This document shows, piece after piece, positions 12,428 to 28,253 of a stretch of DNA of 49,461 nucleotides (positions are counted from its first letter, which is position 1; every line of letters begins with the position of its first letter). The stretch comes from a virus (Duplodnaviria > Caudoviricetes): the IMG/VR virus record IMGVR_UViG_3300037760_000064, positions 1-49,461 of that record; one strand, written 5' to 3'. The notes beneath the pieces were generated by a model. The model saw only the letters and a program-made list of their open reading frames with translations. It ran no database searches and was not told where the DNA came from. A program made the translations under genes and the position numbers.

Positions 12428-12507
12428 TGGCGGGGTTCCTCTCGGGTAGGGGGCGGCCGGGGGGTTGACGTCCTTGACGGCGCGACCGCCGGAAGGGTCG
12501 GGGACCG

Positions 12508-12711
12508 TCAGCACGTCGCACCCCCGACCAGCCGGTAGTGCCGCCGCGTCCAGTCCCACGCCGAGGGCCAGTCCGGCTCCGTGTGGGAGGTGTGCCAATG
12601 CCCGCGGGTCGGGTCGAAGTCGTCGATCTCGATGCGCACAGCGCCGTGATCGGCAAAAATGTGGTAATGCGGGAGTGACGCGTGCTGGCTGTAATGGTCG
12701 GTCTGGATCAT
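12508..12711 (-). CDS. Hypothetical protein
   Basis: TAATG coupling to the Tas-like gene. Confidence 0.45.
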   Translation of the reverse strand: MIQTDHYSQHASLPHYHIFADHGAVRIEIDDFDPTRGHWHTSHTEPDWPSAWDWTRRHYRLVGGATC

Positions 12712-13913
12712 TACGACGGCTCCTCGTCATGTTCGGCGGCAGCAGCCCCGGCGCCACGTATGTGGGCGTCGGAAGGGCGTTGGCCGGGGCCGCTGCCTGT
12801 CCGGTGGACGCGCCGGGTCTCACGCCACAGCGCTTTCAGGACTTCCTTTGAGGTGATGCGCAGCGCGTCGGCGTGGCGGTGCCCGTCAGACCACGGCGTG
12901 CCGGGCTGGGCTGGCTTCCCGGATGGGCCGCAGCGCACGCACTCCACGTCGTGCATCCGGCCTTCGGTGGCTGCCTTGCGCTTGTCGTAGATTTCGCGGT
13001 TGCCGGCCTTGAGCATCGACTCGGCGATGTTGTAGGCGCGCATCTTCGCGGCGGTGGACCAGTTGGCCTGCTCGCCTCGTCGGCGCCTCTGTCCCGGCTT
13101 CAGCCCGCAATATCCCCACAGCTCTGACGGGGTTCGGGGTCGGTCGTGCAGGGTGTTCCAGTACGGGTCGCCGATCGCGGCCAGCAGCCGGGCTGCCTGC
13201 TTCTCCCCGACCCCGCGCTGCTCCTTCACCCACGCGCCGAGCGGGTGCTTCCGCATCGCCCGGTTCAGGTTCAGCGTCGCCTGGTGTTCCAGCTTCGCGA
13301 TCCCGTCGACGACACCGGCCAGGCGCGCCACGTCGGGGTGCGACTCGTCCAGCCCGAAGCCGCGCTGCCCGCCGTCCTTGTCCACCCCCGTGCGGGTCAG
13401 CTGACGCAGCCGGTTCTCGTTCGCGATGCGGGTACGTTCCAGGTCGTCGAGGACGTCGGCGAGCAGCGCGAGAGTGGGGTCCGCCAGCGGCTCGGTTATG
13501 GGCACCGTCCAGTCAGTGGCTGGCGGACCCCACGAGGGTGCGACAACGGCGAGATGGGAATGGGCATCGTGTGGTTTTTGGCCGTTGTCGCTGCTTGAGC
13601 CCCCGCCGACGCGGCGAAGATGGGCGTCGAACTCGGGATGGTCGGCGGGGATGTTTGGCGGCACCTGCGTAGCGACCATGGGTTGCGGCCGTGTCGTGGC
13701 GGGTGCCGTGTCTTGCCCCGCACCGACGACTGCTGAATGGGCGTCGTTCGTCATCTGGCCGGTGCGGGAGTTTGGACCTGCCGACGACGGCAGTTGTTCG
13801 GGCGACGCAGCATCGTTGGTCGCCGGCAGGTGGTCCGTACCCGCAGCGACGTAGGCCAGCTGGGTGTCGTGGTCAGCATGGTCGCTGCGGGTAGTCAGTG
13901 TTGGGCGGCTCAT
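12711..13913 (-). CDS. tasA: TasA-like protein: IS110-related coiled-coil + Nop RNA-binding domain, no nuclease domain. The ORF also spans the guide array.
   Basis: LADVLDDLERTRIANENRLRQL coiled coil; HPL..W....GVGEKQAARLLAAIGDP...SELWGYCGL...WS...K...Y.IAE...Y..RK...GHRH..A.R...K..L..LW. No DEDD RuvC, no HNH, no IS110 catalytic SG. TIGR-like units at both ends. The true start is uncertain (13913 or ~13505). Confidence 0.8.
   Translation of the reverse strand: MSRPTLTTRSDHADHDTQLAYVAAGTDHLPATNDAASPEQLPSSAGPNSRTGQMTNDAHSAVVGAGQDTAPATTRPQPMVATQVPPNIPADHPEFDAHLRRVGGGSSSDNGQKPHDAHSHLAVVAPSWGPPATDWTVPITEPLADPTLALLADVLDDLERTRIANENRLRQLTRTGVDKDGGQRGFGLDESHPDVARLAGVVDGIAKLEHQATLNLNRAMRKHPLGAWVKEQRGVGEKQAARLLAAIGDPYWNTLHDRPRTPSELWGYCGLKPGQRRRRGEQANWSTAAKMRAYNIAESMLKAGNREIYDKRKAATEGRMHDVECVRCGPSGKPAQPGTPWSDGHRHADALRITSKEVLKALWRETRRVHRTGSGPGQRPSDAHIRGAGAAAAEHDEEPS
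12738..12797 (-). ncRNA. Single downstream TIGR-like stem-loop guide unit (unit 8)
   Basis: ggcagcggccccgg CCA acgcccttc CG acgc CCA catacgtgg CG ccggggctgctgcc. Confidence 0.85.
13474..13893 (-). ncRNA. Stem-loop TIGR-like array, 7 dual-spacer guide units (period 58-62 nt)
   Basis: Every unit is a unique 10-15 bp stem closing CCA-N9-CG-NNNC-CCA-N9-CG (unit 2 has CCG at the second box). Units at 13838-13893, 13776-13831, 13717-13768, 13659-13708, 13601-13650, 13540-13591, 13474-13533. Confidence 0.88.
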
Positions 13914-14383
13914 GCGGCACGCCCCAAAGCGTCAGCCAGAACATCCTCAGGCAGCGACGCGCACGTCGCCGTGCCCACCAGATGCCCGGCAAGCTTCTCG
14001 AACCGCTCCGCCGTAGCGAGATTCTCGTCCGCGATACGGCGCCGCTCCGCTGCGATGTACAGCAGATCGTCACGGGTGCAGTCACGCAGCAGCTTCCACC
14101 CAGCCGGCGTGAACAGCCGATCCTGAAGATGGCGCCGCCACCCCTCACGGATCGCCGCCACCTTCCACGACGCCGGCGCCTTCGGATGCACCGCCACCGG
14201 CATGTGCGAGCGGCGCGACATCATCACCAGCCGGGCGAACTGCCGCAACACCTGCTGCAACGCGGCCGCGTAGTCATCGACAGTGAGCCGGCGGTACGCC
14301 TCCTCCGCCACCTCAGCCGGGTCGGCGAGGTCGGTCGAGTCCAGCACGTCGGCGATGACCGACCGGAGATTGAACTCGGTCAC
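13910..14383 (-). CDS. Hypothetical protein, candidate Tas partner
   Basis: GAAGGAG RBS, GTG start; its stop overlaps the ATG of the Tas/array ORF (ATGA). WKLLRDCTRDDL...AERRR.ADEN motif. Confidence 0.75.
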   Translation of the reverse strand: MTEFNLRSVIADVLDSTDLADPAEVAEEAYRRLTVDDYAAALQQVLRQFARLVMMSRRSHMPVAVHPKAPASWKVAAIREGWRRHLQDRLFTPAGWKLLRDCTRDDLLYIAAERRRIADENLATAERFEKLAGHLVGTATCASLPEDVLADALGRAA

Positions 14384-14516
14384 GATAGGATCTCCTTCGG
14401 TTGGTGGCCCCGTGTGGCTTGAGAGGTCGAGCGCGGGGCTACTGCTTGTCGGGGGCTTGGAGCCGGGCGAGCCTGCGGGACTTGTGGGGGCGTCGACCGC
14501 AGGCCCACCCGGCCGC

Positions 14517-14657
14517 TCACGGGTAGGTCTCGGGTTGTCGCTCAAGTCGGTCGGCGTGGCGCTCGAACACCTCGGCCATCGCCTCGCGACCATCAGCGCG
14601 GTACGTGTCAGCCAGTGCCTGCATCGCCCGCGCCATGTGCAAATCCGCCTCGCTCAC
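14517..14657 (-). CDS. Small hypothetical protein (46 aa)
   Basis: GTGA coupling; helical MSEADLHMARAMQALAD. Confidence 0.45.
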   Translation of the reverse strand: MSEADLHMARAMQALADTYRADGREAMAEVFERHADRLERQPETYP

Positions 14658-14842
14658 GACCCACCCCCGATCAGCTGCGCCACATACCACGCCACCTGCG
14701 AACACACCAACACCACCGGCGCCACAAACAGCAGACCCAGCGCTAGGAACATCAGCGAGCAGCCACCACTCACCGGGAGGTTCTTCGGCCGCTGGTGGTA
14801 GTAGGGATTTCCTCCGGGGCTGCTGTAACGGGTGCGGGTCAT
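14654..14842 (-). CDS. Small membrane protein
   Basis: ATGA coupling; TM LMFLALGLLFVAPVVLV. Confidence 0.5.
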   Translation of the reverse strand: MTRTRYSSPGGNPYYHQRPKNLPVSGGCSLMFLALGLLFVAPVVLVCSQVAWYVAQLIGGGS

Positions 14843-15042
14843 GATCGAACTCCCCGCGGTGGCGTGTACGCAGGCAACGACCTCCACCAATCCATGAGGT
14901 CGTCATGGTCGATGCGGATATGCCGAGACCCGATCTTCCGCGCGAGCAGCCGCTCGTCCTTGATGGCCCGGTCAATGGTCTTCTCGCTGACCGAGACCTG
15001 TTCGGCGGCTTCGGTCTTGGTGTAGGCAATTTTGGCCATCAC
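14839..15042 (-). CDS. Excisionase (Xis)-family DNA-binding protein
   Basis: AYTKTEAAEQVSVSEKTIDRAIKDERLLARKIG...RI..DDL..W; third gene of the early operon. Confidence 0.85.
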   Translation of the reverse strand: MMAKIAYTKTEAAEQVSVSEKTIDRAIKDERLLARKIGSRHIRIDHDDLMDWWRSLPAYTPPRGVRS

Positions 15043-15284
15043 TCCCCCACCGCCTCGTAGTGCTCGGCGAACGTGATTGGGTCGACGGGGTACATCTCGC
15101 CGGTGCGCCGACGGACGATGAAATCTCCGATTGGCACGTCGGATGGGCCGCGAAGGGTTTGGATGACAAGGTCATCGCCGTTCTGCCAGATTGCCCCGGT
15201 TCTGCGCCACGATGCGGGGATTTCGTGGACCACCCCTTGCCATTCGACTGCGTCTATCTCGATAGGGCGGGATGCGTACCTCAT
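15039..15284 (-). CDS. Conserved small phage protein
   Basis: MRY.SRPIEIDAVEW...I.TLRG.....GDFIVR...GE.YPV.P..F...YE.V family pattern. Confidence 0.75.
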   Translation of the reverse strand: MRYASRPIEIDAVEWQGVVHEIPASWRRTGAIWQNGDDLVIQTLRGPSDVPIGDFIVRRRTGEMYPVDPITFAEHYEAVGE

Positions 15285-15532
15285 GACGCGTCCCGCTCGG
15301 TGTCGCGCTCGGATTCACCAAGCAGTTGCGGGAGTGGCACGCCGAGGCCCATGGCGATAAGCCCGAGCGTGGAACCACGGACAGCTCGGTGGCCATGTTC
15401 AACTCGGCGAAGGGTGAACAAGCTCACGGATGCGCGCTCGGCAAGGTCTTTCATCTTCATGCCCCGTGCCTCGCGGAGCCCGCGCACGATGCGCCCAATC
15501 TCTTCGGGTGCGGGGAGGGGAGATGTCTCCAT
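15281..15532 (-). CDS. cro: Cro-like XRE HTH protein
   Basis: IGRIVRGLREARGMKMKDLAERASVSLFTLRRVEHG; first gene of the leftward lytic operon, divergent from the repressor. Confidence 0.85.
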   Translation of the reverse strand: METSPLPAPEEIGRIVRGLREARGMKMKDLAERASVSLFTLRRVEHGHRAVRGSTLGLIAMGLGVPLPQLLGESERDTERDAS

Positions 15533-15535
15533 GCC

Positions 15536-15586
15536 GGAGACTCTAGGGCACTTTTAGAGTGTTATCAAGAGAGTTTAGGAGACTCT
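15536..15586 (-). promoter_or_regulatory. Leftward lytic promoter and operator repeats of the immunity switch
   Basis: Minus strand TTGATA (15563-68), 17 bp, TAGAGT (15540-45). GGAGACTCT repeated at 15536 and 15578, with inverted AGAGT half-sites. Confidence 0.7.
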
Positions 15587-15681
15587 TATTCGGCGTGTCG
15601 CCTGGACTGGAACCCCCAGGTCAGAGCGATTTATGCTCGCTCGGTCTTGTGTTTTCTCTCCTTTTCACTCATCCTTGGCCT

Positions 15682-16101
15682 GTGGCTGGCCGGAGCAAGT
15701 TGTCCGATAGGCAGCGCAAGCGGCTCGGCGAAATCATCGCCGAGCGCCGTAAGGAGCTTGGGCTGTGGCGGCAGCGCGACCTAGCTGACAGCGCAGGCGT
15801 GGGTATCGAGGTAGTGAATAATCTTGAGAACGGCCGGCGGTTCGCGAGCGATCGGAACATCTACCGGATCGAAGTGGCCCTCGACTGGAGCATCGGTGCC
15901 ATGGAGCGGATTGGCCGTGGCGGTGACCCCACCGACGAGGACATCCGTCCGAGCACCGACCAGCCAGTCCTCTACGACGAGATCGAGCGCAAGTTGTGGG
16001 TGCTCCCGCTGCCCGTGGCCGAGCGGCGGGGGATGATCGTGTTCTATCGCATGCAGCGTGAGCTAAACGAGGGCGGCGGCGACACCCAGGTGGTCAGCTG
16101 A
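15682..16101 (+). CDS. Immunity repressor (XRE HTH)
   Basis: RLGEIIAERRKELGL.RQRDLADSAGVG...VNNLENGR......IE.ALDW..G; divergent from cro. Start uncertain (GTG 15682 or TTG 15700). Confidence 0.85.
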   Translation: MAGRSKLSDRQRKRLGEIIAERRKELGLWRQRDLADSAGVGIEVVNNLENGRRFASDRNIYRIEVALDWSIGAMERIGRGGDPTDEDIRPSTDQPVLYDEIERKLWVLPLPVAERRGMIVFYRMQRELNEGGGDTQVVS

Positions 16102-16285
16102 CCGTGGCCAAGCGGGAGCGCCTCGTCCTGATTCCAGTGTCGTCGAGAATCCGCCAGGCATCAGAATGTGCGTCGACCGTGTGCCGGATTTTGTCATCCT
16201 GAGCGCACTTACGTCGCTCGTGAATCGCCAGAGATACCCAGAAAATGCCTAACCCAATACCGCTCCCGATGACGCTCAGCTTCAT
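16094..16285 (-). CDS. Possible small membrane protein
   Basis: N-terminal hydrophobic stretch; GGGGTGG RBS-like sequence; atypical codon usage. Confidence 0.35.
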   Translation of the reverse strand: MKLSVIGSGIGLGIFWVSLAIHERRKCAQDDKIRHTVDAHSDAWRILDDTGIRTRRSRLATVS

Positions 16286-16689
16286 CGCTAAACCACCCCT
16301 AGATCGGCTCCCACTTGTCAGCTGTAATCCCCCACGTCTGACATGTCCGGCACGCTATGACTGATCCATATCGCTGGATAGATGGCCAGAAAGGTCCGTG
16401 GCCGAATCGTTATAAGCGTGGGTGCTATTGTCTGGTATGCCCAGCTTCTAGCTACAGCTCTGCACAGCTAATGAGACGAGCATACTCAGGTACTGACCTG
16501 ACGGCCGGGAAATCTCCAAATCGCCGGAGTCGCCGCCACGAGCGCCTGCTCAGCCTCACCAGCGGACACACGAACACGACCAGGCGGCGGATACCCGGTG
16601 GTCTCATCGAATACGACAGGCACCACGCCTCCCGTTGCCCCCACCCATGGCCGGGCACCATACCGCAGAGATCGATCACCGTCGATACC

Positions 16690-16839
16690 TGCTGAGCTGA
16701 GCGAGCCGAACACCCCCAATATCCCGGATTTCTGGCGCTGAACGGGGCCCGCGATGCTGAGCGGATTCGCTCAGCATGCAGGTCAACGCCACAATCCGGT
16801 GCTGAGCGGCCACTTAGCACTCAGCTGGCCCGCTCAGCA
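16690..16839. repeat. Cluster of GCTGAGC(G) direct and inverted repeats downstream of traB
   Basis: Copies at ~16691, 16696, 16756 and 16801 (direct) and 16768 and 16831 (inverted), plus degenerate ones. Confidence 0.65.
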
Positions 16840-18896
16840 GAAACCATCGCCTCGAACTCGGTGTCGCGGGCATCCTCGTCACCATCTGCGTCAGTTGCGG
16901 ACACGTGCAACTGGCGCCGGGTCACCCCTTGTCCTGATGCCACCTCTCGTGGCTTGGCCGGATCCCAGACGACTCGCGGCTCGATGCCGATCTCGCGCAG
17001 CATCGCCCCCACCGACCGGGCGTTCAGCGCGCCGTAGGTTTGCTGACGCAGCGCGGCAAGTCCGTCAGCGAGGTCGGCTAGGTGGATAGCGTCGGCGTTG
17101 CCGATGACCTGACGACAGTCGGCCAGGAAGTCGACCTGTTGCAGCGTGTCGGTGATGTCCTCCCCGGCTGCGTAGCCCGTCAGCCGACCCTGCGCCTCAC
17201 GCACGGCGCGGGCACGTAGCGCGATCTTCTCCGACCGCACGCCATCGAGGCCGTAGACGGAACGCACAATTTGGGCCTCGGCGCCCTCCGCGCGTAGGTA
17301 GCCGAGCCCCTTGTCCTCATAGGCGAAGACGGTGGCGTCTATCCCCGAGTTGTACGCTCCGGTACCAAGGATGGAATCATTGGCCCCCCATCCCATGACC
17401 TTGAGGCAGAAACGGACCACGGCGTTCGCGGAGATAGCCGTCGGGATGCTGTTGGCGTCGGGCTTCTGGGTGCCGAAATAGGAGTGAATACCGACCGCCG
17501 GGCCACGTTTTACCAGGTCAGTGCAGATGTAGATGAACTCGTCACGGATCGTCTTACTGGAATGCTCCATCCAAACTTGCACCTCATCTGTCAATAGCAA
17601 TATGGGTCCAAGATTCAGTTGTCGCATATTCGCGATCTGATCATTGACCTTATTCTCCGGACATAGCGCACGATTCTCCTCAGCTATTTTCCGGATTACT
17701 TTGATACGGCGCCGCATCTCTTTGTGTAGGTCACGCATCTGGGCGAGCTGAGTTTCGATGTCCTCCGGCTCGTCACCGACGCCGTAGCCGTGCGCCACCA
17801 GCGACAGCGGCCCGAAGTCGCCGGTTCCCTTGAGGTCGTAAGCGTAGATGATCGTGCGCGGGTCCAGGGCGAATACCAGCCCGAGCTGCCGCATCACGAA
17901 TGTCTTGCCAGTCCTCGGAAGACCTCCGATCACCCCGGACGTATAGGCCAGAGTGAGCGCTACCCAGTGGCCGCGCTGGTCGGTGAACATCGGCACCGCG
18001 TCGAACACGTTGACCTGTCCCTTGCTCATGAGCGGCCAGGGCCGCTGCCGAGCGGTCGATACCGGCTCGTCAGCGACATACAGCTCCAAGTGCGCCTCAT
18101 GGCGCTTACCACGGGTGGGCCACACGGTGCCGAGCTCGCGGCGCAGCGCCGCGGACAACTGCGGCCGCTTCTCAATGACCTTGCCAGCTGTGACACCGGC
18201 CGGCAGTTCTAGTCCGACTTGGTACCCGCCAGTGGTGCGGGCGACGTCGTGCAGCAGACCGATCGACTCAGCATCTTTCATCCCGGCGATACCGAGAGTG
18301 CACAGCGCCTCGCGCACCATGGGCGCCGATACCGGCGGCGGCGCCCCATCGACCAGCGGTACCGCGTTCAGCAGCCGCTTGTCACGCGGCCGGCCGGCCC
18401 AGCCGAGTACCAGCAGTACCAGCACCGACACCGCCCAGAACAGCGCCGGCGATACCAAGAGCCAAACGATTGCGATACCGATACCGATCATGGCAATGAT
18501 GGCCCCAAAGGCGATCTGCCGGTTGCGGATCCGGTCCTTGCGGGCCTGTTCCAGTCGCAGCCACACCTCGGTCTCGCGCTGCCCGGCGTGGTGGCGTTGC
18601 AGCCCGCGGGTCTCCTCGTCGAGCATGGCCCGCCACAGCCACGCCACCGACCTGCCCACCCCACGTGGGCTCCACTTTAGTAAACGGGCCACATACACGG
18701 GCAGCCACAGCAGATGACGGACCAGAGTGTGCCGCCAGCGGCGGCTGGTCCTGCGGACGGTGGTGCCGAGCTCGCCGCCGCGCATCCAATCAGCCACCAG
18801 CGGTGGGTGGCTGGTATCGCTGGTATCGGTAGCGGGCATCGCGGCGGTATCGGTGGTGGTGTGGTTCTGGGCGTGGTCGGTGGTGCTGTTGGTCAC
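16821..18896 (-). CDS. traB: TraB-like FtsK/SpoIIIE conjugative DNA translocase
   Basis: Two N-terminal TM helices; Walker A GGLPRTGKT; YDLKGTGD; Walker B LLLTDEVQ; RGPAVGI...TQKP; C-terminal winged-helix-like region. GTG start coupled to the upstream stop. Confidence 0.88.
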   Translation of the reverse strand: MTNSTTDHAQNHTTTDTAAMPATDTSDTSHPPLVADWMRGGELGTTVRRTSRRWRHTLVRHLLWLPVYVARLLKWSPRGVGRSVAWLWRAMLDEETRGLQRHHAGQRETEVWLRLEQARKDRIRNRQIAFGAIIAMIGIGIAIVWLLVSPALFWAVSVLVLLVLGWAGRPRDKRLLNAVPLVDGAPPPVSAPMVREALCTLGIAGMKDAESIGLLHDVARTTGGYQVGLELPAGVTAGKVIEKRPQLSAALRRELGTVWPTRGKRHEAHLELYVADEPVSTARQRPWPLMSKGQVNVFDAVPMFTDQRGHWVALTLAYTSGVIGGLPRTGKTFVMRQLGLVFALDPRTIIYAYDLKGTGDFGPLSLVAHGYGVGDEPEDIETQLAQMRDLHKEMRRRIKVIRKIAEENRALCPENKVNDQIANMRQLNLGPILLLTDEVQVWMEHSSKTIRDEFIYICTDLVKRGPAVGIHSYFGTQKPDANSIPTAISANAVVRFCLKVMGWGANDSILGTGAYNSGIDATVFAYEDKGLGYLRAEGAEAQIVRSVYGLDGVRSEKIALRARAVREAQGRLTGYAAGEDITDTLQQVDFLADCRQVIGNADAIHLADLADGLAALRQQTYGALNARSVGAMLREIGIEPRVVWDPAKPREVASGQGVTRRQLHVSATDADGDEDARDTEFEAMVSAERAS

Positions 18897-19645
18897 GCCG
18901 CCGACTCCTGGGCCGATCGCGAGCCGTTGGCGGACGGCTGGTAGTGCCCGTTGAGTACCAACCTCCGCAGCTGTATCGCCGTGCTCTTCGAGACGCTCAA
19001 GGCGGATACCAGTCGAGTCGACGACATGTCTTGCAGACCGCGCTCGTAGACGGTCCCCAGCAGGGCGAGGACGTGGGGGCTCGGGGGCCGGCTCGCCGAT
19101 GCGGCAGCGGTCGCAACGCCTACCGGTACCGGCGGTGGTGGCGGGGCGGAGATGGCCGGCGAGTCCGCAGAGGAGCATGGCTGGGAACCTGCCGCGTGGC
19201 GGTCGCTGGTACTGCTCCATGGCGCATCCCTGGTGATGATGTGGACGACGAGGCCGACTGTGATCGCCGGTACCGACCCGACCGCGGTCACCACGACCCA
19301 GCCCGGCACCAACAGCCCGGTACTGATCAGGTGCGATACCGCGTTCCCCGCCACCGACGCGGCGATGGCACCCACCGATACCGACGCGGCGGTGCGGGAC
19401 CGTGACCTGCGGTACTCAGTGAGAGCAGCGGCGGCCAGGGCGTCGATGGACAGGGGTAGCAGCGGCGACGTCCACACCGGCCAACCAGCATGTATCGCCA
19501 GGTCGCGGAGGAAGACGAAGCTGGCGAGTACCGCCGCTGTGGCCGATACCGCGATGAGGACTCGACGCCACCAGATGATCACAAGACGGTACTGTACCAG
19601 CAATACCAGTGATACTAGTATCGAAAGGGTTGAGATGAAGAGCAA
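18893..19645 (-). CDS. DUF2637/SpdA-like multi-pass membrane protein with C-terminal HTH (plasmid/AICE spread protein)
   Basis: AAVLASF..LRDLA...GW.....LLPLSID...SVAGN..H...V..VP; Pro-rich linker; STRLVSALSVSKSTA HTH-like end. Confidence 0.75.
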   Translation of the reverse strand: MLFISTLSILVSLVLLVQYRLVIIWWRRVLIAVSATAAVLASFVFLRDLAIHAGWPVWTSPLLPLSIDALAAAALTEYRRSRSRTAASVSVGAIAASVAGNAVSHLISTGLLVPGWVVVTAVGSVPAITVGLVVHIITRDAPWSSTSDRHAAGSQPCSSADSPAISAPPPPPVPVGVATAAASASRPPSPHVLALLGTVYERGLQDMSSTRLVSALSVSKSTAIQLRRLVLNGHYQPSANGSRSAQESAA

Positions 19646-19649
19646 GTAG

Positions 19650-20151: not shown

Positions 20152-20192
20152 CTAATCCTTAATGACCTCCTCGTCGTCGGCGGTACCAGGCG

Positions 20193-21566
20193 TCACTGCT
20201 CGATGGCGATCAGGTCGACCATCCGCTGTAGCCCGTCACGCATCAGGCGGTCATCGACGTGCTGGTAGCCGCGGGTGGTCGTCACTGACGAGTGGCCGAG
20301 GATCTGTTGCACGGTGTGGCCGTCGACGCCGGCCTCGTGGAGCAGGGATGCGGCCGTGTTGCGGGCCTCGTGGACGGTGACGTCCCGAGCACCGACGAGC
20401 TTGAGCAGGCCGTCCCAGGTGGCGGTGTCATCACTCGGGTCGATCGGCCGGCCGTCGGGTCGCGTCCACACCAGTCCGTGCGGGTTGGGCTCATCCTCGA
20501 TGAGCTCGAGTCTCAGGCGCAGCGCGGCCTTCAGCGGCGGAATGATCGGGACAACACGCCACCCGGCCCGGCTCTTCGGCCGGATGAGGCAGAGCCCACC
20601 ATCGAGCCGCCGAAACTCGAAATCTGCACGGACGTCGAGCTGACACTGAGGACACGACCCCGCGCGCTTCCGTCCGCACGACCACGCCCCGTCAGGGGTG
20701 CGATCCCCGCAGCCATGCCGGTACTTGATGCGCTGCAGCTCCCAGGCGACCTCTAGTCGAGGTGCCGGCGCTCCGGTGGCAGGGTCTACGTAGTCCAGGT
20801 GCAGGCAGTCGAGAGTGAGCCCTAGGGTCTCGCCCTGCCGTGTGCCGGCGAGCAGCGCCGCGGCCCACCGGGAGCCGATCCGGTCGACGAGGACGCCACT
20901 CCCGTCAGCCAGGGCGGCGCGACGGAGGACCGCCCTCGCCTCCGCTGTCGTGAGCCCCTCCCGCCTGCTTGGCGCTTTCCGGGGCGCGTCAAGCAATGTG
21001 GCGACGTTGCGGGCGACAAGCGGCGGTTGCTCGCGCATAGCGTCATTTAGCGCCCTGCGCAGGATGGCGTGGGCCTGTAGGACCGTGGTCGACGACCTGG
21101 TAGCACCTAGCCGCTTGTATGCGGTTCTGAGGTGGTGCGACTGGAGCGTGTCAAGCTGGTGCTTGCCCAGTTGCGGAATGAGCATGGTCTGGATCTTCGA
21201 GCGGTAGCCGTCGCGGGTGGACGGCTTGAGCCGCTTGTAGGCGATCTCGTCGATCCAGTAGCGCAGCCACTTCTCGACGGTCATGCCCTTCTGTGGCACG
21301 TCGCCGTGCTCGGACACTCGCTGCTTCAAGTCGTCGAGCTTCTTCTTGGCGACCTTGTAGTCCTTGGCGGTGATGACGCGGCGCTGCCGTTTGCCGTCGT
21401 ACCAGCCGAGGTCGACGGCGCCGACCCACAGGCCGCGGCATCGATGCTTGGGGCGGATGCGCCTGGGGCCGTCCTCCGTCTGTATCTCCTCGGCCGGTGG
21501 ACACCCGTAGACCGACTCGCAGCGCTGATAGAGGCCACCTTCACCCTTGTTTCGACGCTTCGGCAT
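20193..21566 (-). CDS. int: Tyrosine integrase
   Basis: KRRNKGEGGLYQR arm-binding start; catalytic R (GTRQGE), K (PKS), HEARN, LGHS, Y (GYQH). Confidence 0.97.
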   Translation of the reverse strand: MPKRRNKGEGGLYQRCESVYGCPPAEEIQTEDGPRRIRPKHRCRGLWVGAVDLGWYDGKRQRRVITAKDYKVAKKKLDDLKQRVSEHGDVPQKGMTVEKWLRYWIDEIAYKRLKPSTRDGYRSKIQTMLIPQLGKHQLDTLQSHHLRTAYKRLGATRSSTTVLQAHAILRRALNDAMREQPPLVARNVATLLDAPRKAPSRREGLTTAEARAVLRRAALADGSGVLVDRIGSRWAAALLAGTRQGETLGLTLDCLHLDYVDPATGAPAPRLEVAWELQRIKYRHGCGDRTPDGAWSCGRKRAGSCPQCQLDVRADFEFRRLDGGLCLIRPKSRAGWRVVPIIPPLKAALRLRLELIEDEPNPHGLVWTRPDGRPIDPSDDTATWDGLLKLVGARDVTVHEARNTAASLLHEAGVDGHTVQQILGHSSVTTTRGYQHVDDRLMRDGLQRMVDLIAIEQ

Positions 21567-21577
21567 TGACCGCCTCC

Positions 21578-21813
21578 ACTGTAGTCTGTACTGTAGCCAA
21601 TATGAGTCTGGACGTGTCCGGACGAGTCTACAGTGAGAAGCCTCTGACCAGCAATGGAACGGGTAACAGCTAAGGTCGAGCCTACCGTACCAGGGGACTC
21701 ATAATCCCTTGGCCGTGGGTTCGAGTCCCACCCACCCCACCATAGCTGACCAGGACCGGAACCTTTCAGGAGGTCTCGGCGAAGCCTCTCTCTGTAGCCA
21801 GGACTGTAGCCAA
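21578..21813. other. attP: tRNA-derived core with flanking arm-type sites
   Basis: Core ~21691-21742 is the 3' half of a tRNA (anticodon loop CTCATAA, GGTTCGAGTCC, ACCA end). (A)CTGTAGCCA-type repeats at 21578, 21590, 21792 and 21803; inverted copy at 21628. Confidence 0.9.
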
Positions 21814-21832
21814 TGGCCTCACGGAGAGACAG

Positions 21833-22399
21833 ATGACCAACCTCGACACCCCCGTTCCACCACCCCCGCCCACCCAGAAGCGATCCCGTTGGCTCTTTCC
21901 AGCTGTCGCCATACTCGCCGTGCTCGTTCTACTCGTCGGCGTCGGTATCGGCGCGTCCGGCAGCGAGCCGGAGGTTGTCATCGAGACGAAGACCGTCGAG
22001 GTTGAGCCGAAGGATCTCACCGAGCAGCGTGAGGCTGCCGACCAGCGTGCGGTCGAGCTTGATGCTCTCCAGGGTGAGCTAGACGCGCGAGCGGCCGCAC
22101 TCGACGAGCAGGCCGCGGCGGTCAAGGTCCGCGAGGACGCCGTCACCAAGACCGAGCAGGCGATTGCCGCGAACACCGTGACCGATGGCATCTGGACGGT
22201 AGGTGTGGACATTGAGCCCGGCACGTACCGAGCGACCAGCGTCGCCGCCGACTGCTACTGGGCTGTCCTCGTCACCGGGTCGAACGGCTCGGACATCGTC
22301 GATAACGGCATCCCCGGCGGGGGGAGCCCGACCGTCACCGTCAAAGAGGGCCAGGACTTCGAGACAACCCGCTGCGGCGAGTGGACGAGGCAGCCATGA
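21833..22399 (+). CDS. Membrane-anchored coiled-coil protein (superinfection-exclusion candidate)
   Basis: TM WLFPAVAILAVLVLLVGVGIG, coiled coil, then DGIWTVGVDIEPGTY...CYW...DIVDN domain. Confidence 0.8.
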   Translation: MTNLDTPVPPPPPTQKRSRWLFPAVAILAVLVLLVGVGIGASGSEPEVVIETKTVEVEPKDLTEQREAADQRAVELDALQGELDARAAALDEQAAAVKVREDAVTKTEQAIAANTVTDGIWTVGVDIEPGTYRATSVAADCYWAVLVTGSNGSDIVDNGIPGGGSPTVTVKEGQDFETTRCGEWTRQP

Positions 22400-22536
22400 T
22401 CGAGACCCCTACCCGCGGCCGTCACCGTGTGGCGCGTCGACTCACACCCGGACAGGGTGTGCTGCTGGCGCTCGGCGTGTCGGTCGTGCTCTTTTGGGGG
22501 CCTTTAGCGCTCGGCCTGTGGCTGTGGTCGAGATGA
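22396..22536 (+). CDS. Small membrane protein (46 aa)
   Basis: ATGA couplings at both ends; GVLLALGVSVVLFWGPLALGLWLW. Confidence 0.5.
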   Translation: MIETPTRGRHRVARRLTPGQGVLLALGVSVVLFWGPLALGLWLWSR

Positions 22537-22744
22537 TCACGAGGGAGCAGCAGTGCGAGCTGGACCGGCTGGCGTACGAGTTGGCTGCGGGGGAGGATGG
22601 CTGACATGGCCACGGATGTTTTTGCGAGCGTAGTGCTGGGTGCGGCGCTGGCCGATGGGCTGGAGCGGGTGGCCGACTCGCTCGCATGTTTCCAGATAGA
22701 GATCCACGAGTTGGCCGCCGAGCACGGCTTCGAGGTAGGTGAGG

Positions 22745-23125
22745 ATGGCTGACATGGATGAGCTAGTGGAGTTCCTGCGCGCCCGGCTGGACGAGGAGGC
22801 AGCGGCGGCGCGGGAGGCTTCCGGCAGGTGGCGACGAGCCGGCATCAACAGTGTGGAGGATTCCGACGGGCGACTGGTCATCTACGGCGACGGATCTGCG
22901 CCAACAAGCGCTGAAGCCGAGCACATCGCCAGCCACGACCCCGCTCGCGTGCTCGCCGACGTGGAGGCCAAGCGGCGCATCGTGGCAGAGCTAGAACACG
23001 CCGACCCCTACGACATGGACTACTGGGGCGGTCGAGGCGGCTACGACCGGGCGCAGACCACCCTCCGCCTACTCGCGCTGCCGTATGTCGACCATCCCGA
23101 CTACCGACAGGAGTGGCGGCCGTGA
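22745..23125 (+). CDS. DUF6221-like protein
   Basis: LVEFLRARLDEE...HIASHDPARVLADVEAKRRIV...LRLLALPY.DHPDYRQEWRP. Confidence 0.85.
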   Translation: MADMDELVEFLRARLDEEAAAAREASGRWRRAGINSVEDSDGRLVIYGDGSAPTSAEAEHIASHDPARVLADVEAKRRIVAELEHADPYDMDYWGGRGGYDRAQTTLRLLALPYVDHPDYRQEWRP

Positions 23126-23376
23126 ACATCGTCGAGTTCATCACCGCCCGCGAACGTGAGGACTGTCTCGCCAGCCCGGACCCTGAAATCCTGCAGGAAG
23201 AGTGGGAGCCGGTGTGGCGGAAGTCCTTCTCGTGGGCCGTGCAGGATTTGAGTGTCGCCCTGCGGTCGGTGTTTTTCGCGCTGGGCGACACTGTTCCGTT
23301 CACGAGGCCGGCCGTTCGGCAGCACGCCGAACAGTGGGCCAACCATCCTGACTATCGAGAGGAGTGGCGTCCCTAG
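23122..23376 (+). CDS. DUF6221-like paralogue (shorter)
   Basis: IVEFITARERED...WANHPDYREEWRP; GTGA coupling. Confidence 0.75.
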   Translation: MNIVEFITAREREDCLASPDPEILQEEWEPVWRKSFSWAVQDLSVALRSVFFALGDTVPFTRPAVRQHAEQWANHPDYREEWRP

Positions 23377-23453
23377 ACATGGCGCCCCCACCAGGTGCGT
23401 TAACACCTGATGAGGGCTTGATCCATCCACTGCCTACACAGGAGGACAGATCC

Positions 23454-23945
23454 GTGAGTACCGTACCTACCGCGCTCGACCTGGTCGAGCATGTCTATGA
23501 CGCTGTGGACGAGATGCGTGAGCAGGCGGGCGCGATCAGCGCCACGATCTCGTCGAGTGGTGATGTGGCGGCCGTCGCTGGTGACGCGGCGGCGGCGATC
23601 CGCGCTCAGTACGTGGCGGCGCGGGGTGCGCTGACCCAGCTGCGGGGGATGCTAGACCCGACGACAGCAGATCGGGCGGCGCCCGGCGAGTGCCCGACCG
23701 TGGGGTGGTGTGAGCTGGGCGGGGAGCACCGCACGCACCGCCGCAGCGTGCACACGGTGCGGATCGGCACCGAGCAGTACATCGAGATCGGTGTGGCCGC
23801 GGTGGATGGTGAGGCGCCGTGGGTGCAGCTGGGCCACGTGATCACGGTGGGGACGGTGCTGCCGGCCGGGATGGTGCGCCTGTCGATGGGGCAGGCGCGG
23901 GAGCTCGGTGGCGGGCTGGTGGACGTGGTGAGACGGTTCGGGTGA
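23454..23945 (+). CDS. Hypothetical protein
   Basis: AGGAGGA RBS, GTG start; CP...WC.....H..H motif and LS..QARELG..L end. Confidence 0.65.
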   Translation: MSTVPTALDLVEHVYDAVDEMREQAGAISATISSSGDVAAVAGDAAAAIRAQYVAARGALTQLRGMLDPTTADRAAPGECPTVGWCELGGEHRTHRRSVHTVRIGTEQYIEIGVAAVDGEAPWVQLGHVITVGTVLPAGMVRLSMGQARELGGGLVDVVRRFG

Positions 23946-24047
23946 GTTGTCGACGGTGATCGACATGTCCGGTATGTCCGGTATGGTCCCGTCGATCAGA
24001 CCACAGGTCACGTCACGGTCACATCACGAAACGGCACAGGGAGACTG

Positions 24048-24275
24048 ATGGGCCGATACTGGAAGAAGGCGCGCAAGGATGTCGAAGATGTGCTGGTCAA
24101 GTTCGATGAGGCCGGGTGGCGGATCAAGGACCCGCCGACTTACTACCAGGTGTTATGCCCGTGCGGGATGCACAAGCGGTGGATTCATCTCACGCCCAGC
24201 GATCCCAAGTACTTGCGCAACGCCATACAGTGGTTGAAGCGACAGCCGTGCTACCAGGAGGGAGGTCGGCCATGA
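24048..24275 (+). CDS. HicA-like toxin
   Basis: Small basic protein: KDVEDVL.....GWRI......VLCPCG.H...IHLTPS; ATGA-coupled to an acidic partner. Confidence 0.65.
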   Translation: MGRYWKKARKDVEDVLVKFDEAGWRIKDPPTYYQVLCPCGMHKRWIHLTPSDPKYLRNAIQWLKRQPCYQEGGRP

Positions 24276-24601
24276 TTCGAGTAGGAATCCATGGCGTGTT
24301 CCACGTGAGCGGTGGCACTAATGAAGGACTCTCGGAAGCCTGCGACCAAGTGATGGAGACCCTCGTTCAGCTGGAGAAGGCCGGCGGCAATGTACGTGAC
24401 GCGGCGGTCGCGGTCGATCTCCGAACTCGCCTTGTCGAGGTGGAGCTGGTCGGTGAGGGCGACAGCTTCGACGCCGCACGCAGCGCAGCGGAATCCGCTG
24501 TCCGCTCAGCCATTCATAAAACTGGCGGCCACACTGGGAATCTAGTCAAAGACAACAGGTTCCGTGTCCAGGCCATGAACGCCGAGCTCGTCGACGCCTG
24601 A
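24272..24601 (+). CDS. HicB-like antitoxin candidate
   Basis: GGAGG RBS; GDSFDAARSAAESAVRSAI resembles the HicB G.T.EEA helix. Confidence 0.55.
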   Translation: MIRVGIHGVFHVSGGTNEGLSEACDQVMETLVQLEKAGGNVRDAAVAVDLRTRLVEVELVGEGDSFDAARSAAESAVRSAIHKTGGHTGNLVKDNRFRVQAMNAELVDA

Positions 24602-24611
24602 CCAGATCCAC

Positions 24612-24653
24612 CAAACCGCTCCGTCCCACGTTGCCGCAGGGCGGGGCGGTTTG
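24612..24653. terminator. Bidirectional terminator-like hairpin
   Basis: CAAACCGCTCCGTCC / GGGCGGGGCGGTTTG between convergent genes. Confidence 0.7.
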
Positions 24654-24663
24654 TATGTGCGGA

Positions 24664-24990
24664 TCATCCGCCTGGGTTATAGGCGTCCGGGGTCACACTG
24701 GATCGAACGTCGGCTTCGGCTCGGGCGACCACCTGCCAGGCCGCCGAAGGGTCCTGTTCGACCATGAGTAGGTACGGCACGTCATCGACGTTCACGTCAC
24801 CCACATGGACGGTCGTTGTGGCGTGCACAGCTGTCACGGTGATCTTGACGTCATCGTCGCCGCAGACTCGTCGGATCACGTTGCACCAGGTGTCGACAGC
24901 CAGCTGCGCGAAGTCGTCAAGCCCTGGGTGCACGCCGCGCCCAAGCGGGGCTACCCAGTAGCGCGGGTCGACCATAGGACGCCCTCCCAT
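24664..24990 (-). CDS. Hypothetical protein
   Basis: ORF divergent from the 25033 promoter; GGGAGG before ATG 24975. Confidence 0.5.
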   Translation of the reverse strand: MGGRPMVDPRYWVAPLGRGVHPGLDDFAQLAVDTWCNVIRRVCGDDDVKITVTAVHATTTVHVGDVNVDDVPYLLMVEQDPSAAWQVVARAEADVRSSVTPDAYNPGG

Positions 24991-25032
24991 GCGCTTATGC
25001 GTGCACGGTCCGACAAATAACGCTACCGGGTA

Positions 25033-25098
25033 TTGACATGACCAACCCCGTCCGATAGATTAGCGGTATCGGGAAACACCGCAGGATCTATCGGACGG
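25033..25098 (+). promoter_or_regulatory. Consensus sigma70-type promoter with a 13-bp inverted-repeat operator
   Basis: TTGACA (25033-38), 17 bp, TAGATT (25056-61); CCGTCCGATAGAT (25048-60) / ATCTATCGGACGG (25086-98). Confidence 0.85.
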
Positions 25099-25106
25099 AG
25101 CAGTCG

Positions 25107-25415
25107 ATGACCACCCTAACAGCCCCAACGGCCCACCCGACCAAACTCCGCAACGGCAGCTGGGGCGCGACCGTCAAAACCGCCACCCACCTCGACGCTG
25201 GCGACAGCATCACCATCACCACGAAAACCGGCAAGACCTGGACTGCTGAGATCGCCAAGGTCGTGTGGCGGGGCAGCCAAGAAGGTCTACACGTCTTGAT
25301 CGTGGCCACACGATCCACACCGCGGTCGACCAACCCGGACCGCTGCCGCACCTGCCACGGCCGCGGCCGCTACGACGGCTGCGACCGCTGCGGCGCCGAG
25401 AGCCAGACCATCTGA
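25107..25415 (+). CDS. Small protein with C-terminal CxxC..CxxC Zn ribbon
   Basis: GGAG RBS; TKLRNGSWG.......GD.ITITTK.GK.W beta domain; first gene after the strong promoter. Confidence 0.7.
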   Translation: MTTLTAPTAHPTKLRNGSWGATVKTATHLDAGDSITITTKTGKTWTAEIAKVVWRGSQEGLHVLIVATRSTPRSTNPDRCRTCHGRGRYDGCDRCGAESQTI

Positions 25416-25429
25416 GAGGAGAGCGCACC

Positions 25430-25795
25430 ATGTACGACTACGGAGAAACCAGGACAGCACTGATCCAGGCTGGGATCGCGGAGGAGGCCATCCGGCCCGG
25501 AAACCATGAATGGGCGGCCATAGTCGAGGGTCACGGCGGCATTAGCCGGCTCTCCGACGACGAGTGGATAGCGACCAACCCCGGCATGAGCGACACACCA
25601 CTCACGGGGCGAGACCCGCTGCGACTGATCGGATACCGCGGCCGCCGCGGACGGCCAGCTATCGGCCCGATGGTGAACGTCAGGATCGACCAGCAGACGA
25701 TCGACCTGCTGGACGACGTCGCCGAGACGACCCATGCCACTCGCGCCGAAGTGATCCGACGCGCCGTCACTCACTACCTGCGCACCCAGGTGTAG
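25430..25795 (+). CDS. Protein with C-terminal ribbon-helix-helix (CopG-like) DNA-binding domain
   Basis: GAGGAG RBS, ATG 25430; RGRPAIGPMVNVRIDQQTIDLLDDVAE.....RAEVIRRAV. Confidence 0.85.
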   Translation: MYDYGETRTALIQAGIAEEAIRPGNHEWAAIVEGHGGISRLSDDEWIATNPGMSDTPLTGRDPLRLIGYRGRRGRPAIGPMVNVRIDQQTIDLLDDVAETTHATRAEVIRRAVTHYLRTQV

Positions 25796-25815
25796 CCAGG
25801 AGCAGGCGAGTGGTT

Positions 25816-25874
25816 CTCCACGGTCACCAGCCACTCCCGCGACCTCGTCGTGGGAGTGGCTGGTGACCGTGGAG
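25816..25874. repeat. 28-bp near-perfect inverted repeat (long hairpin) upstream of cas12m
   Basis: CTCCACGGTCACCAGCCACTCCCGCGAC-ctc-GTCGTGGGAGTGGCTGGTGACCGTGGAG; one G-U pair. Confidence 0.95.
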
Positions 25875-25976
25875 CACCGGCAGTGATGGATGTAGTGGCA
25901 GCACAAGCAGACCGCGAGCGGTCGCATTAGGTGTCACCACCACCACCACGCGCAGCGACTCACACGGAGATACCTG

Positions 25977-27695
25977 ATGACGATGACTGTGTACCGGTAC
26001 GGGCTGCCCTCCTGGGTGGTCCTGCCGCAGGTCGTAGACGAGCAGCTGTGGCTGGCGCACCAGCTGCGTAACCAGCTGGTGCAGCTGGAACACGAGCATG
26101 AGGAGCAGCTGGCCGCACTCATGTCGTCGTACCCTCAGGTCGCGGAGGCGGAGCAAGCCCGGGAAGCGATAGCTGCCCGGACCGCCGAACTGGAAACCAA
26201 GGTGGCCCAGGAGCGGGCGCGGCAACGGACCCGCTCACCGAAACATCCCGCTGTGCGTGAGCTCGCAGAGACTCGAGCACAGCTGAAAGCGGCCCGCGTC
26301 GATGTGCGCGACCGCAAGGCGGCAGTCCGGGACGCCTCCGCCGGGGCCAAGAAGGATCTGCGTGACCAGCTGAAACAGCGCCAGAAAGAGCTGTACGGCG
26401 AATACTGCCAGACACGTGGACTGTACTGGGCCGTCTACAACGATGTCGCAGATCACCATCGCGTCGCGGCGAGACGTGTGGTGGCGAAACGCTCAGCTGG
26501 GCAGCCCGCCCAGCTGCGATATCACCGGTGGGACGGGTCGGGATCGCTAGCCGTACAGCTGCAGCGGGCCCAGACGGACCCGCAGCGCACCCCCGACCGT
26601 ATCGCCGACGGCGAGCACGGCAAGTGGCGCAACGTCCTATCGATCTCGCAGGGCACCCGCCACGGACAGCTGCGTATGCGGGTCGGTGCCGAACATGTCA
26701 CACTGCCGATAATCGTCGACCACGACATGGACGACGACGCGGACATCACAGGCGCACGCCTCACAGTCAGACGAGTCGCCGGGCAGCGGCGCGTACACCT
26801 GACAGTCGCCGCCAAGCTCCCCGACCCGGCACCAGTCACCAGCGGCGCCACCTTGGCTGTGCACTGTGGCTGGAGGCGTGAGGACGACGACTCTATCCGC
26901 GTCGCCACCTGGAGAGCAGGACAACCAGTCACAGTGCCGGTCGACCTCAAAGACATCGTCACCCAGGACACATCCACCAGCGGGATCGTCACGATGCCGG
27001 TGGCGTGGCGGGACCGCATCGCCCACTACACCACCGTGCAAGCCAGCCGTGACACCCGGCTAGAGCAGATACGAGATCGCGTCGTCCAGTGGCTCACGAC
27101 ACACCCACAGGACGACATCGACCCTGCCAGCGTGGCTAAATGGCGCAGCCCAACGCGGCTGGCGAAACTGGCATGGCAGTGGCACCACGACACTCCCGCA
27201 GGTGGGGACCAGATCACACGAGAGCTGATGTCATGGCGCCGCTGGGACCGGGTCAGGTGGGAGCAGGCAGCGCACGGCACCCAGAGGGCGACCGGCCGGC
27301 GTGACGACGCGTGGCGCCGGTTCGCCGCCTGGGTAGCGTCCACAGCAGTCGTGGTGGTGGTGGACGACACAGACCTGGCCGCACTGACCAGACAGATCAC
27401 CCAGGAGCCGACCACGATCCCCACCCAGGTCACACAGATCGCCGCGCGGCAACGCGTCGACGCTGCTCCTGGTGGTCTACGCCAGGCGGTGCGATCTGCC
27501 GCCACCCGTGACGGAGTCACGGTCGTAACGGTCCCGTCGAAAGGCCTATCGGGCGACTGCTATCGCTGCGGGCACAGCGGCAACGACGTCACCGGCCACG
27601 TGATCTACTGCGACAGCTGCGACAAGCCCTACGACCGTGACGCATCCGCGACACTACACATGATCCGACGTGCGAGCGGTCACTTGACCACTTGA
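25977..27695 (+). CDS. cas12m: Cas12m (type V-M, formerly V-U1) CRISPR effector with non-canonical RuvC
   Basis: 572 aa. QLWLAHQLR, LYGEYC...LYWA.YN.V..HH, RWDGSGSLAVQLQR and DADITGA motifs as recalled for Cas12m. RuvC-I LAVHCGWR (H for D), RuvC-II VVDDTD (D for E), AAPGGLR, Zn finger CYRC/CDSC, RuvC-III YDRD. Adjacent CRISPR array. Confidence 0.92.
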   Translation: MTMTVYRYGLPSWVVLPQVVDEQLWLAHQLRNQLVQLEHEHEEQLAALMSSYPQVAEAEQAREAIAARTAELETKVAQERARQRTRSPKHPAVRELAETRAQLKAARVDVRDRKAAVRDASAGAKKDLRDQLKQRQKELYGEYCQTRGLYWAVYNDVADHHRVAARRVVAKRSAGQPAQLRYHRWDGSGSLAVQLQRAQTDPQRTPDRIADGEHGKWRNVLSISQGTRHGQLRMRVGAEHVTLPIIVDHDMDDDADITGARLTVRRVAGQRRVHLTVAAKLPDPAPVTSGATLAVHCGWRREDDDSIRVATWRAGQPVTVPVDLKDIVTQDTSTSGIVTMPVAWRDRIAHYTTVQASRDTRLEQIRDRVVQWLTTHPQDDIDPASVAKWRSPTRLAKLAWQWHHDTPAGGDQITRELMSWRRWDRVRWEQAAHGTQRATGRRDDAWRRFAAWVASTAVVVVVDDTDLAALTRQITQEPTTIPTQVTQIAARQRVDAAPGGLRQAVRSAATRDGVTVVTVPSKGLSGDCYRCGHSGNDVTGHVIYCDSCDKPYDRDASATLHMIRRASGHLTT

Positions 27696-27720
27696 CACCT
27701 AGCGAGCGCTCGCACACACT
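27692..27720 (+). promoter_or_regulatory. Possible CRISPR leader promoter
   Basis: TTGACA (27692-97), 17 bp, CACACT; palindrome GCGAGCGCTCGC in the spacer region. Confidence 0.4.
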
Positions 27721-27849
27721 GCAACCCAGGCCATAGGGCCCACGCACCTTGACATCACCCATCCAGTCTGTCCCGGAACGGACAGACACAACCACCACTC
27801 GCGACAGACCAAAACGTCGCAGGTCAGCACCACCCACAACGACACAGCG

Positions 27850-28253
27850 GTGTCCATGCCAGCGTTGGGGCTTCGTACCAGCGAGACCTCGCCACCGCCT
27901 CGTACAGGCGGTGGAAGATGTGTGTCCATGCCAGCGTTGGGGCTTCGTACCAGCGAGCGTCAAGACTCATGATCTTGTTCCTTTCGTTTAGACCTTGTGT
28001 CCATGCCAGCGTTGGGGCTTCGTACCAGCGAGACATGGACATCGAGAACAGCACCCAGATGAATTGGGTGTCCATGCCAGCGTTGGGGCTTCGTACCAGC
28101 GAGACAGATCGCTTCGACCGCGAGGTCGACCCCGAGTTCAAGGTGTCCATGCCAGCGTTGGGGCTTCGTACCAGCGAGTAGCGTCGTCGGTGCCGTCCCG
28201 CCGCCATGCCTCGGCCGGTGTCCATGCCAGCGTTGGGGCTTCGTACCAGCGAG
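27850..28253 (+). CRISPR. CRISPR mini-array: 6 identical 36-bp repeats, 5 spacers (36, 39, 35, 39, 39 bp)
   Basis: Repeat GTGTCCATGCCAGCGTTGGGGCTTCGTACCAGCGAG at 27850, 27922, 27997, 28068, 28143 and 28218; internal stem CGTTGG/CCAGCG. Confidence 0.99.

Follow-up and report, generated by a model that had tools for sequence, protein, structure and literature searches.

The DNA analysed here (the window; 49,461 nucleotides (nt)) is an entire virus record, IMG/VR record IMGVR_UViG_3300037760_000064, and carries one non-redundant set of siphovirus genes, with terminase, portal, capsid, tail, endolysin, tyrosine integrase, cI/cro-like helix-turn-helix (HTH), RecE/RecT, WhiB and DnaB all present. 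It holds two RNA-guided effectors, each a known kind of system with its own guide array: TasA, from a locus for tandem interspaced guide RNA (TIGR), and, on the opposite strand, Cas12m (type V-M) with a CRISPR array (Table 1). Directly upstream of tasA lies a gene for a 157-amino-acid (aa) protein of no Pfam family, called the partner gene below, which we found to be conserved across viral loci and cultured phages. Since the nearest cultured relatives of the terminase, at approximately 35% identity, infect Streptomyces and Arthrobacter, the host of this phage is likely an actinobacterium. A search for near relatives using the integrase gave a single match, at 31%, and Rfam and tRNA scans of the window gave none.

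Table 1. Positions, within the window, of the two systems and of other phage features
Feature	Position	Strand	Remarks
tasA	12711..13913	-	approximately 140-codon array-encoded N-terminus; coiled-coil and Nop core, aa 141-375; without RuvC or HNH
Seven stem-loop TIGR guide RNA (tigRNA) units in the 5' part of tasA	13474..13894	-	
Eighth tigRNA unit, in the 3' end of tasA	12738..12797	-	
Partner gene of tasA, 157 aa, phrog_4604, no Pfam family	13910..14383	-	stop overlaps the tasA ATG
Hairpin like a degenerate tigRNA unit, upstream of the partner gene	14459..14519	-	from sequence and fold
cas12m	25977..27695	+	RuvC H296/D463/D555; residues reading the protospacer adjacent motif (PAM), Y140, W151, N155, Q194 and Q196, kept
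CRISPR array	27850..28253	+	six identical 36-nt repeats, five spacers of 35-39 nt
Spacer 4	28104..28142	+	matches the conserved motif of a small gene found next to integrases in satellites and prophages
Sigma-70-type promoter-like site	25033..25061	+	10/12 matches
Two small open reading frames (ORFs), the second ending in a ribbon-helix-helix (RHH)/CopG repressor domain	25107..25795	+	
Inverted repeat of 32 bp separating cas12m from the RHH gene; may be a terminator	25812..25878	+	z -7.7
Promoter-like site (15568-15540) and cro-like HTH gene (15281-15532), head of the early operon	15281..15568	-	
Excisionase-like gene (xis)	14839..15042	-	
cI-like repressor (HTH; true start uncertain)	15559..16101	+	HTH_3 and PHROG repressor matches on 15559-15906
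Tyrosine integrase	20193..21566	-	
attP, the phage attachment site	21586..21815	.	core at approximately 21693-21742 resembles the 3' half of a CAT-anticodon tRNA

TasA and its conserved upstream gene

The ORF at 12711-13913 is a stem-loop TIGR-TasA, with a Nop domain and a coiled coil related to Tas. It matches TasR in the Protein Data Bank (9mty, E 1.6e-9), and a profile of 24 TasA sequences matches both TasR (E 2e-29) and TasH. A model of the core (residues 141-375) has a predicted local distance difference test (pLDDT) score of 92.5; its ten best Foldseek matches are all TIGR-TasR/TasH, and the IS110 recombinases IS621 and ISCro4 rank below Tas. No nuclease domain was matched in Pfam at E 0.05 within aa 1-140, a region which is the guide array itself. 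A strict scan of the window returned exactly eight tigRNA units, all within tasA (mean 0.2 and maximum 1 in 30 shuffles), with the architecture stem-CCA-9 nt-CG-4 nt-CCA-9 nt-CG-stem. This architecture is shared by 31 of 35 related viral loci, and 88 of 113 upstream units lie within an open tasA frame (27 of the 35 related loci examined). Translation of the array-encoded N-terminus is plausible, if weakly supported: the frame of the array part stays open in 33.5% of spacer randomisations, and GC content at third codon positions is 0.71 there vs 0.89 in the core. The hairpin upstream of the partner gene may be a degenerate unit which has kept the loop and spacer B and is missing spacer A. Base 13872, in spacer A of the first unit, differs in one contig of run X3 (depth 4), either as an error or as a spacer variant.

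As many as 90 GenBank phage records match TasA, 83 of them mycobacteriophages. Since intragenic stem-loop arrays and TasA-mediated repression have already been described, in the available part of bioRxiv 10.64898/2026.09.09.750476, the protein belongs to a known kind, one that is common in actinophages. The "transposase" label which GenBank attaches to these phage genes is likely a mis-annotation; PHROG gives phrog_4285 the same label. Several cultured mycobacteriophages and Gordonia phages have the partner, tasA and tigRNA units (Bethlehem gp72-gp71, locus L243 3153-4657; L244; L250), and their tasA is labelled either transposase or hypothetical in GenBank. The original prediction for this DNA, which had named a TasA-like/TIGR locus, is borne out here; it overlooked the partner gene upstream.

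By tblastn alone, the partner gene was detected upstream of tasA and on the same strand at 25 of 35 viral tasA loci. A profile built from these 25 found it at 32 of the 35, seven of them new (29 of 32 after three duplicate pairs are dropped), and at one of the three loci without it the contig starts at tasA. Applied to whole records, the profile matched stem-loop tasA viruses in 15 of 18 cases and, of 32 further virus records, none; a phrog_4604 search gave one borderline match (E 9.5e-4) among 44 other records. The partner also precedes tasA in all five cultured phages checked, namely Bethlehem, Rich, Peregrin, BENtherdunthat and prophiFSAT01-1. Guide units were seen in four of these five, and in Rich two lie within the partner gene; a weak partner match was found in a Microbacterium phage. 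Because the partner accompanies tasA at most viral loci and in the five cultured phages and is absent from the other virus records, the TIGR clade of this phage looks, from sequence, like a two-gene system.

The partner is modelled as mostly helical (pLDDT 90.2). A Pfam scan of 24 members gave no match below E 0.019 and none to ParB, an Atlas search gave no usable match, and the fold search gave no clear match, its best Z of 4.9 not excluding a family. Prediction of a complex of two TasA and two partner chains scored 0.00 and gives no answer either way. In the available part of PMC12045711, TIGR is generally a single-protein system and its neighbours were clustered at 50% identity, a stricter threshold than the 34% mean identity of the partner family. 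The gene is apparently undescribed: no mention of it was found in the available text of PMC12045711 and bioRxiv 10.64898/2026.09.09.750476 or in a targeted literature search, with supplements outside that text and TIGRSafari being places that may list it. It may act in maturation or acquisition, be an effector subunit, or be merely a linked early gene. The same two sources, as far as available, name TIGR spacer gain, stem-loop tigRNA maturation and tigRNA targets as open questions, and for the first two of these the partner is a concrete candidate. Gordonia phage BENtherdunthat and mycobacteriophages Bethlehem and Rich grow on laboratory hosts, so that the partner and TIGR can be tested natively.

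The Cas12m cassette and the targets of the guides

The ORF at 25977-27695 is, by its sequence, a Cas12m of 572 aa. It aligns end to end with 8pm4 (E 6e-119) and Cas12m2 8hio (E 1e-112); the H-D-D triad was read from the 8hio alignment, in which D463 stands opposite D485. The residues named in the available part of PMC10442227 as reading TTN are conserved and, together with one imperfect protospacer match, suggest a TTN PAM. Its 36-nt repeats are of V-M type, and similar ones adjoin cas12m in viral relatives. Neither cas1 nor cas2 was found among the ORFs scanned, and a Cas12m search of 50,697 GenBank phage records gave no match. Phage-borne Cas12m is already known, since PMC11656645, in the part available, notes V-M as plasmid-enriched and also present in some prophages. 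In the closest viral relative (L036), degenerate repeats with very short spacers lie on both sides of the gene, at 9499-9908 and 11858-12092.

As the original prediction placed it, the cassette is on the opposite strand to the TIGR locus and in a cargo region, at a distance of approximately 4.2 kb from attP and not next to it. The strong promoter-like site which had been noted before cas12m does exist upstream, at 25033-25061. A distance of 916 bp separates it from the gene, taken up in part by two ORFs, one of them RHH, and by a 32-bp hairpin of very high stability; it may therefore not be the driver of cas12m. That both systems silence and do not cleave is in keeping with the sequences, which are missing the canonical nuclease parts, and would follow by analogy with two families of published repressors. 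In the available text of PMC11013384, H-D-D, N-D-D and D-E-D variants of Cas12m bind without cutting and are suggested to be suited to silencing integrated prophages; repression by Cas12m is reported there and in the corresponding part of PMC10442227.

Degenerate scans with four spacer patterns (five scans, spacer 2 being left out of both collections) gave one match, for spacer 4, which corresponds to a small integrase-adjacent gene of actinobacterial satellites and prophages. In the best match, a gene of siphovirus G066, 28 of 30 nt are identical and TTC occupies the PAM position. The spacer-4 peptide scores 27.4 bits on the profile of this family, the best other 13-mer of the window scoring -3.0 (98,840 scored). 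The family comprises proteins of approximately 85 aa (629 matches). At the PAM position, the codon is for Phe in 68 of 120 proteins, and TTC, found at 26 of 73 loci, is the commonest triplet. Among 80 loci in viral contigs an integrase lies within 4 kb in 65, and 33 are on records shorter than 18 kb, 12 with integrase and primase and 12 with integrase and head genes. By these gene pairs the short records fit the working definition of candidate phage-inducible chromosomal island (PICI) satellites given in the available part of PMC10654092. At least one CRISPR RNA (crRNA) would thus be directed against a satellite or prophage in its integrated state, a setting in which binding would be safer than cutting. 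The window itself holds no clear member of the family (best domain E 0.004 over 18 residues). The family (L082-L161) is widespread and unannotated; in satellite-like elements and prophages of actinobacteria its genes lie directly downstream of a tyrosine integrase, and it may serve in regulation or excision.

No match to the phage itself was found for either guide set. When 194 tigRNA units were pooled and scanned against 2.59 Mb, mostly viral and taking in most of the genomes from which the units come, there were 0 exact matches; with one mismatch and gaps of 0-2, nine units matched vs a shuffled mean of 6.0 (maximum 10), which is no excess. Self-regulation of the phage by tigRNAs is therefore unlikely. 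Whole-array blastn against phages and plasmids gave chance-level matches only (E 0.1-5), and 0 matches came from the degenerate scans of viral contigs (spacers 3 and 5) and of metagenome contigs (spacers 1 and 4). A 30/34 match of spacer 5 in two sediment runs was rejected, having three further PAM-proximal mismatches and no TTN; it reads like what we take to be a housekeeping ATPase motif. The reverse complement of spacer 2 (27958-27996) reads like a ribosome-binding site followed by ATG, and its crRNA would cover a gene start.

Contig integrity, gene position and co-occurrence

The attP is intact, and the contig behaves as a single phage. Its core is flanked by two identical 12-nt arm-type sites (21590 and 21803), which are absent elsewhere in the window, so that each side of the core bears one. 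A chimera fused at the tRNA-like att core would make the coexistence of the two systems an artefact, a danger which the original prediction had itself raised. Its signs would be that in the best-matching metagenome run, which may be the sample of origin, the two contigs 12004-21720 and 21704-30500 both end within the core (21704-21720) with no piece across the join, and that IMG/VR classes the record as linear and 70% complete. Against this, depth is equal on the two sides (20.6 vs 22.7) and the gene content is a single siphovirus set. A second study, moreover, contains stretches of tasA (664 nt, 0 differences) and of cas12m (747 nt, 3 differences) that are nearly identical to those here, and a third has stretches of cas12m and of the genes in the run that lies downstream of tasA. 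We consider a chimera highly improbable.

The tasA gene was indeed found in the cro-led run in which it had been placed, on the same strand as cro (15281-15532) and xis, after both of them and before recE/recT. The order in a cultured Gordonia phage is cro ... partner, tasA ... xis, and in BENtherdunthat tasA follows cro and an antirepressor. Homologues of RecE or WhiB lie on the same strand within 5 kb of tasA at 9 of 35 loci, and on the opposite strand at none. Six of the 13 viral cas12m-like genes were examined for position. Four occupy cargo positions, beside an integrase or opposite tail/lysis genes, and two stand in same-strand lytic-type runs ahead of terminase. No RNA datasets matching the phage are listed, and the Cluster A lysogen RNA-seq in the available part of PMC6550527 covers subclusters other than the tasA-bearing A1 phages.

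In 35 tasA virus records, 13 of which are at least 90% complete, protein search found no Cas12m and no member of the TnpB/Cas12 zinc-finger family, the window serving as positive control. From this we conclude that the two systems do not travel together and were likely gained independently. Conversely, Cas12m-like genes were found in 13 records (12 distinct viruses), most being 24-36% identical to the query, and the Tas family was matched in four of these records: G047, G040/G041 and G045, the last at E 5e-4, too weak to count firmly. Control records longer than 30 kb, drawn from 80 loci, gave a Tas match in 1 of 39, a small set which is not taxon-matched; the Fisher p for the 12 Cas12m-like viruses against it is 0.13 if two viruses are counted and 0.036 if three. 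In G047 (L050, L047), a full Tas-like gene is followed by a degenerate dual-repeat-like array with a TnpB-like gene behind it, and a V-U1-like D-E-D effector with a three-repeat mini-array lies elsewhere in the virus. In G040/G041 (L040 10001-12960), a Cas12m-like gene and CRISPR array lead without a break into the remnant of a tasA truncated at its 5' end, behind which come two stem-loop units, one clear and the other degenerate; the repeat is common to the two records and most spacers differ. Here the CRISPR cassette looks to have replaced most of the TIGR locus. Weak phrog_4285 matches in 4 of 17 Cas12m-bearing bacterial genomes may be IS110.

The tasA-Cas12m pair is thus uncommon, not unique and possibly enriched. 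A literature search for the two systems together returned PMC12045711 and a circuit-engineering preprint. We found no published description of the pair in one phage: in the parts available, PMC12045711 brings in type V-M only as an analogy in its Discussion and bioRxiv 10.64898/2026.09.09.750476 does not mention Cas12m. The original prediction was aware of no description of the combination, which agrees with the literature found, although this phage is not alone in having it. The co-occurrence survey it proposed points to a possible association from the Cas12m side (Tas in two to three of 12 viruses) and against one from the tasA side, and mere co-occurrence matters less than was then held.

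Three further observations concern other parts of the phage. Between cI and the integrase (16821-19937), FtsK/SpoIIIE-like, DUF2637 and GntR genes stand in this tailed phage, resembling what we take to be the transfer module of actinomycete integrative conjugative elements. In the cargo region (24048-24601), two small overlapping genes without a Pfam or PHROG match presumably resemble a HicA/HicB-type toxin-antitoxin pair. The gene at 11666-12427 contains a long low-complexity repeat coding for Ala/Tyr/Asn (11749-12099), with a length variant in another run.

Proposed roles and likeness to known systems

Based on these findings, we propose that this temperate actinobacterial phage has a two-gene stem-loop TIGR module among its cro-led early genes and, in the cargo region, a cassette of Cas12m and its CRISPR array. 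The two were likely gained independently, and both likely silence genes of rival prophages and satellites in the same cell by binding them without cutting. We think this probably correct. RNA-guided binding by TasA and Cas12m would block transcription, as published for both families. TIGR would be made in early lytic growth, with the partner acting within it, and Cas12m, reading TTN, would be aimed at integrated elements, in keeping with one spacer. As cutting such elements would break the host chromosome, binding without cleavage would suit this use. The weakest step is that Cas12m would work mainly in the lysogen. It may act in both phases, since satellites exploit their helper in lytic growth, and a guide against satellites would count for as much at induction as it does in the lysogen. 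A phage-borne Cas12m spacer against an integrase-adjacent gene would give non-cutting CRISPR a natural role in conflict between phages and other elements.

Several results weigh against this proposal. The G066 match has 10 mismatches over the 39 nt of spacer 4, three of them PAM-proximal, for which reason the G066 gene is a relative of the target and not the target, and each of the 120 members of the profile has a higher score than the spacer-4 peptide. Because 47 longer records carry the family as well, the label "satellite" is not fixed. Target searches assign nothing to four of the five spacers or to any of the eight tigRNAs. The hairpin at 25812-25878 stands between the strong promoter-like site and cas12m. 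Moreover, in other runs only spacer 3 was seen, between its repeats, in two studies, and the contig of the best-matching run skips the array, through either assembly collapse or a real deletion.

Should one or both systems be inactive passengers, for instance a Cas12m cassette that lacks adaptation genes and whose spacers have gone stale, the absence of cas1/cas2 from the ORFs scanned, the failure to find a perfect protospacer and the degenerate unit upstream of the partner would all be explained. The ORFs, however, are intact, the six repeats identical, the PAM and RuvC residues conserved and the eight stems well paired, and near-identical pieces recur in other studies; we regard inactivity as improbable. 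A somewhat better chance, though still an unlikely one, is given to TasA silencing genes of the host, for defence or metabolism, in the course of infection, with rival elements left to Cas12m. The early-operon position of tasA agrees with this, as do the lack of excess tigRNA matches in mostly viral DNA and the ability of TasA to silence a chromosomal gene in E. coli (bioRxiv 10.64898/2026.09.09.750476, part available), although the 2.59 Mb scanned cover very little of the viral DNA in which targets could lie. The interpretation given in the original prediction is supported in part, its division of labour between lytic growth and lysogeny by gene position. We are equally sceptical of a strict form of that division, in which TIGR expression would be confined to lytic growth and Cas12m expression to the lysogen, with selection for the pairing itself. 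The gene positions in this phage, the four cargo positions out of six and the excess of Tas over controls would fit it, but the controls are limited as stated, no tasA virus of the 35 has Cas12m, two of the six cas12m-like genes lie ahead of terminase, and the cassette abutting truncated tasA in G040/G041 looks like replacement and not cooperation. A bolder idea we hold to be possible though doubtful. Actinophage stem-loop TIGR would be a two-protein system, in which the 157-aa gene supplies the factor still missing, either for maturing tigRNAs or for acquiring spacers. Against satellites and prophages, TIGR-TasA and Cas12m would be non-cutting weapons able to stand in for each other; one phage would keep both, and in another a Cas12m-like cassette would have taken the place of the 5' part of tasA.

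Under our proposal of two separately gained silencing systems, the closest known counterparts are the stem-loop TIGR-TasA proteins PlTasA, BlTasA and MbTasA (available parts of PMC12045711, bioRxiv 10.64898/2026.09.09.750476 and 10.64898/2026.08.11.744272). They share with the phage system a solo Nop domain and coiled coil with a disordered N-terminus, hairpins with a 9-nt loop in which box C/D flanks the 9+9 nt spacers, units within the coding sequence and carriage by phages. Unlike them, the phage has the conserved upstream gene and a co-resident Cas12m. A CUU motif at the stem base is, by eye, not evident in its eight units. The TasParB-TasA operons of PMC12045711, as described in the available part, likewise have a second conserved gene in the tasA operon and guide units near or between genes; they differ in their dual-repeat arrays and ParB domain, for which the partner has no Pfam match. 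IS110 transposases have the Nop-like RNA-binding fold in common with TasA, which in contrast is without the N-terminal RuvC-like DEDD domain, has no transposase Pfam match and possesses tandem-spacer guide units. The phage Cas12m resembles MmCas12m2 (8hio; 8pm4; PMC10442227 and PMC11013384, parts available) in its H-D-D RuvC, coiled-coil REC insertion, TTN-reading residues, 36-nt repeat and short array. It departs from the Arg cluster of that protein, with R111 aligning to V110 and R126 to K125, and, unlike known V-M systems, it sits in a complete-looking phage beside a second RNA-guided binder.

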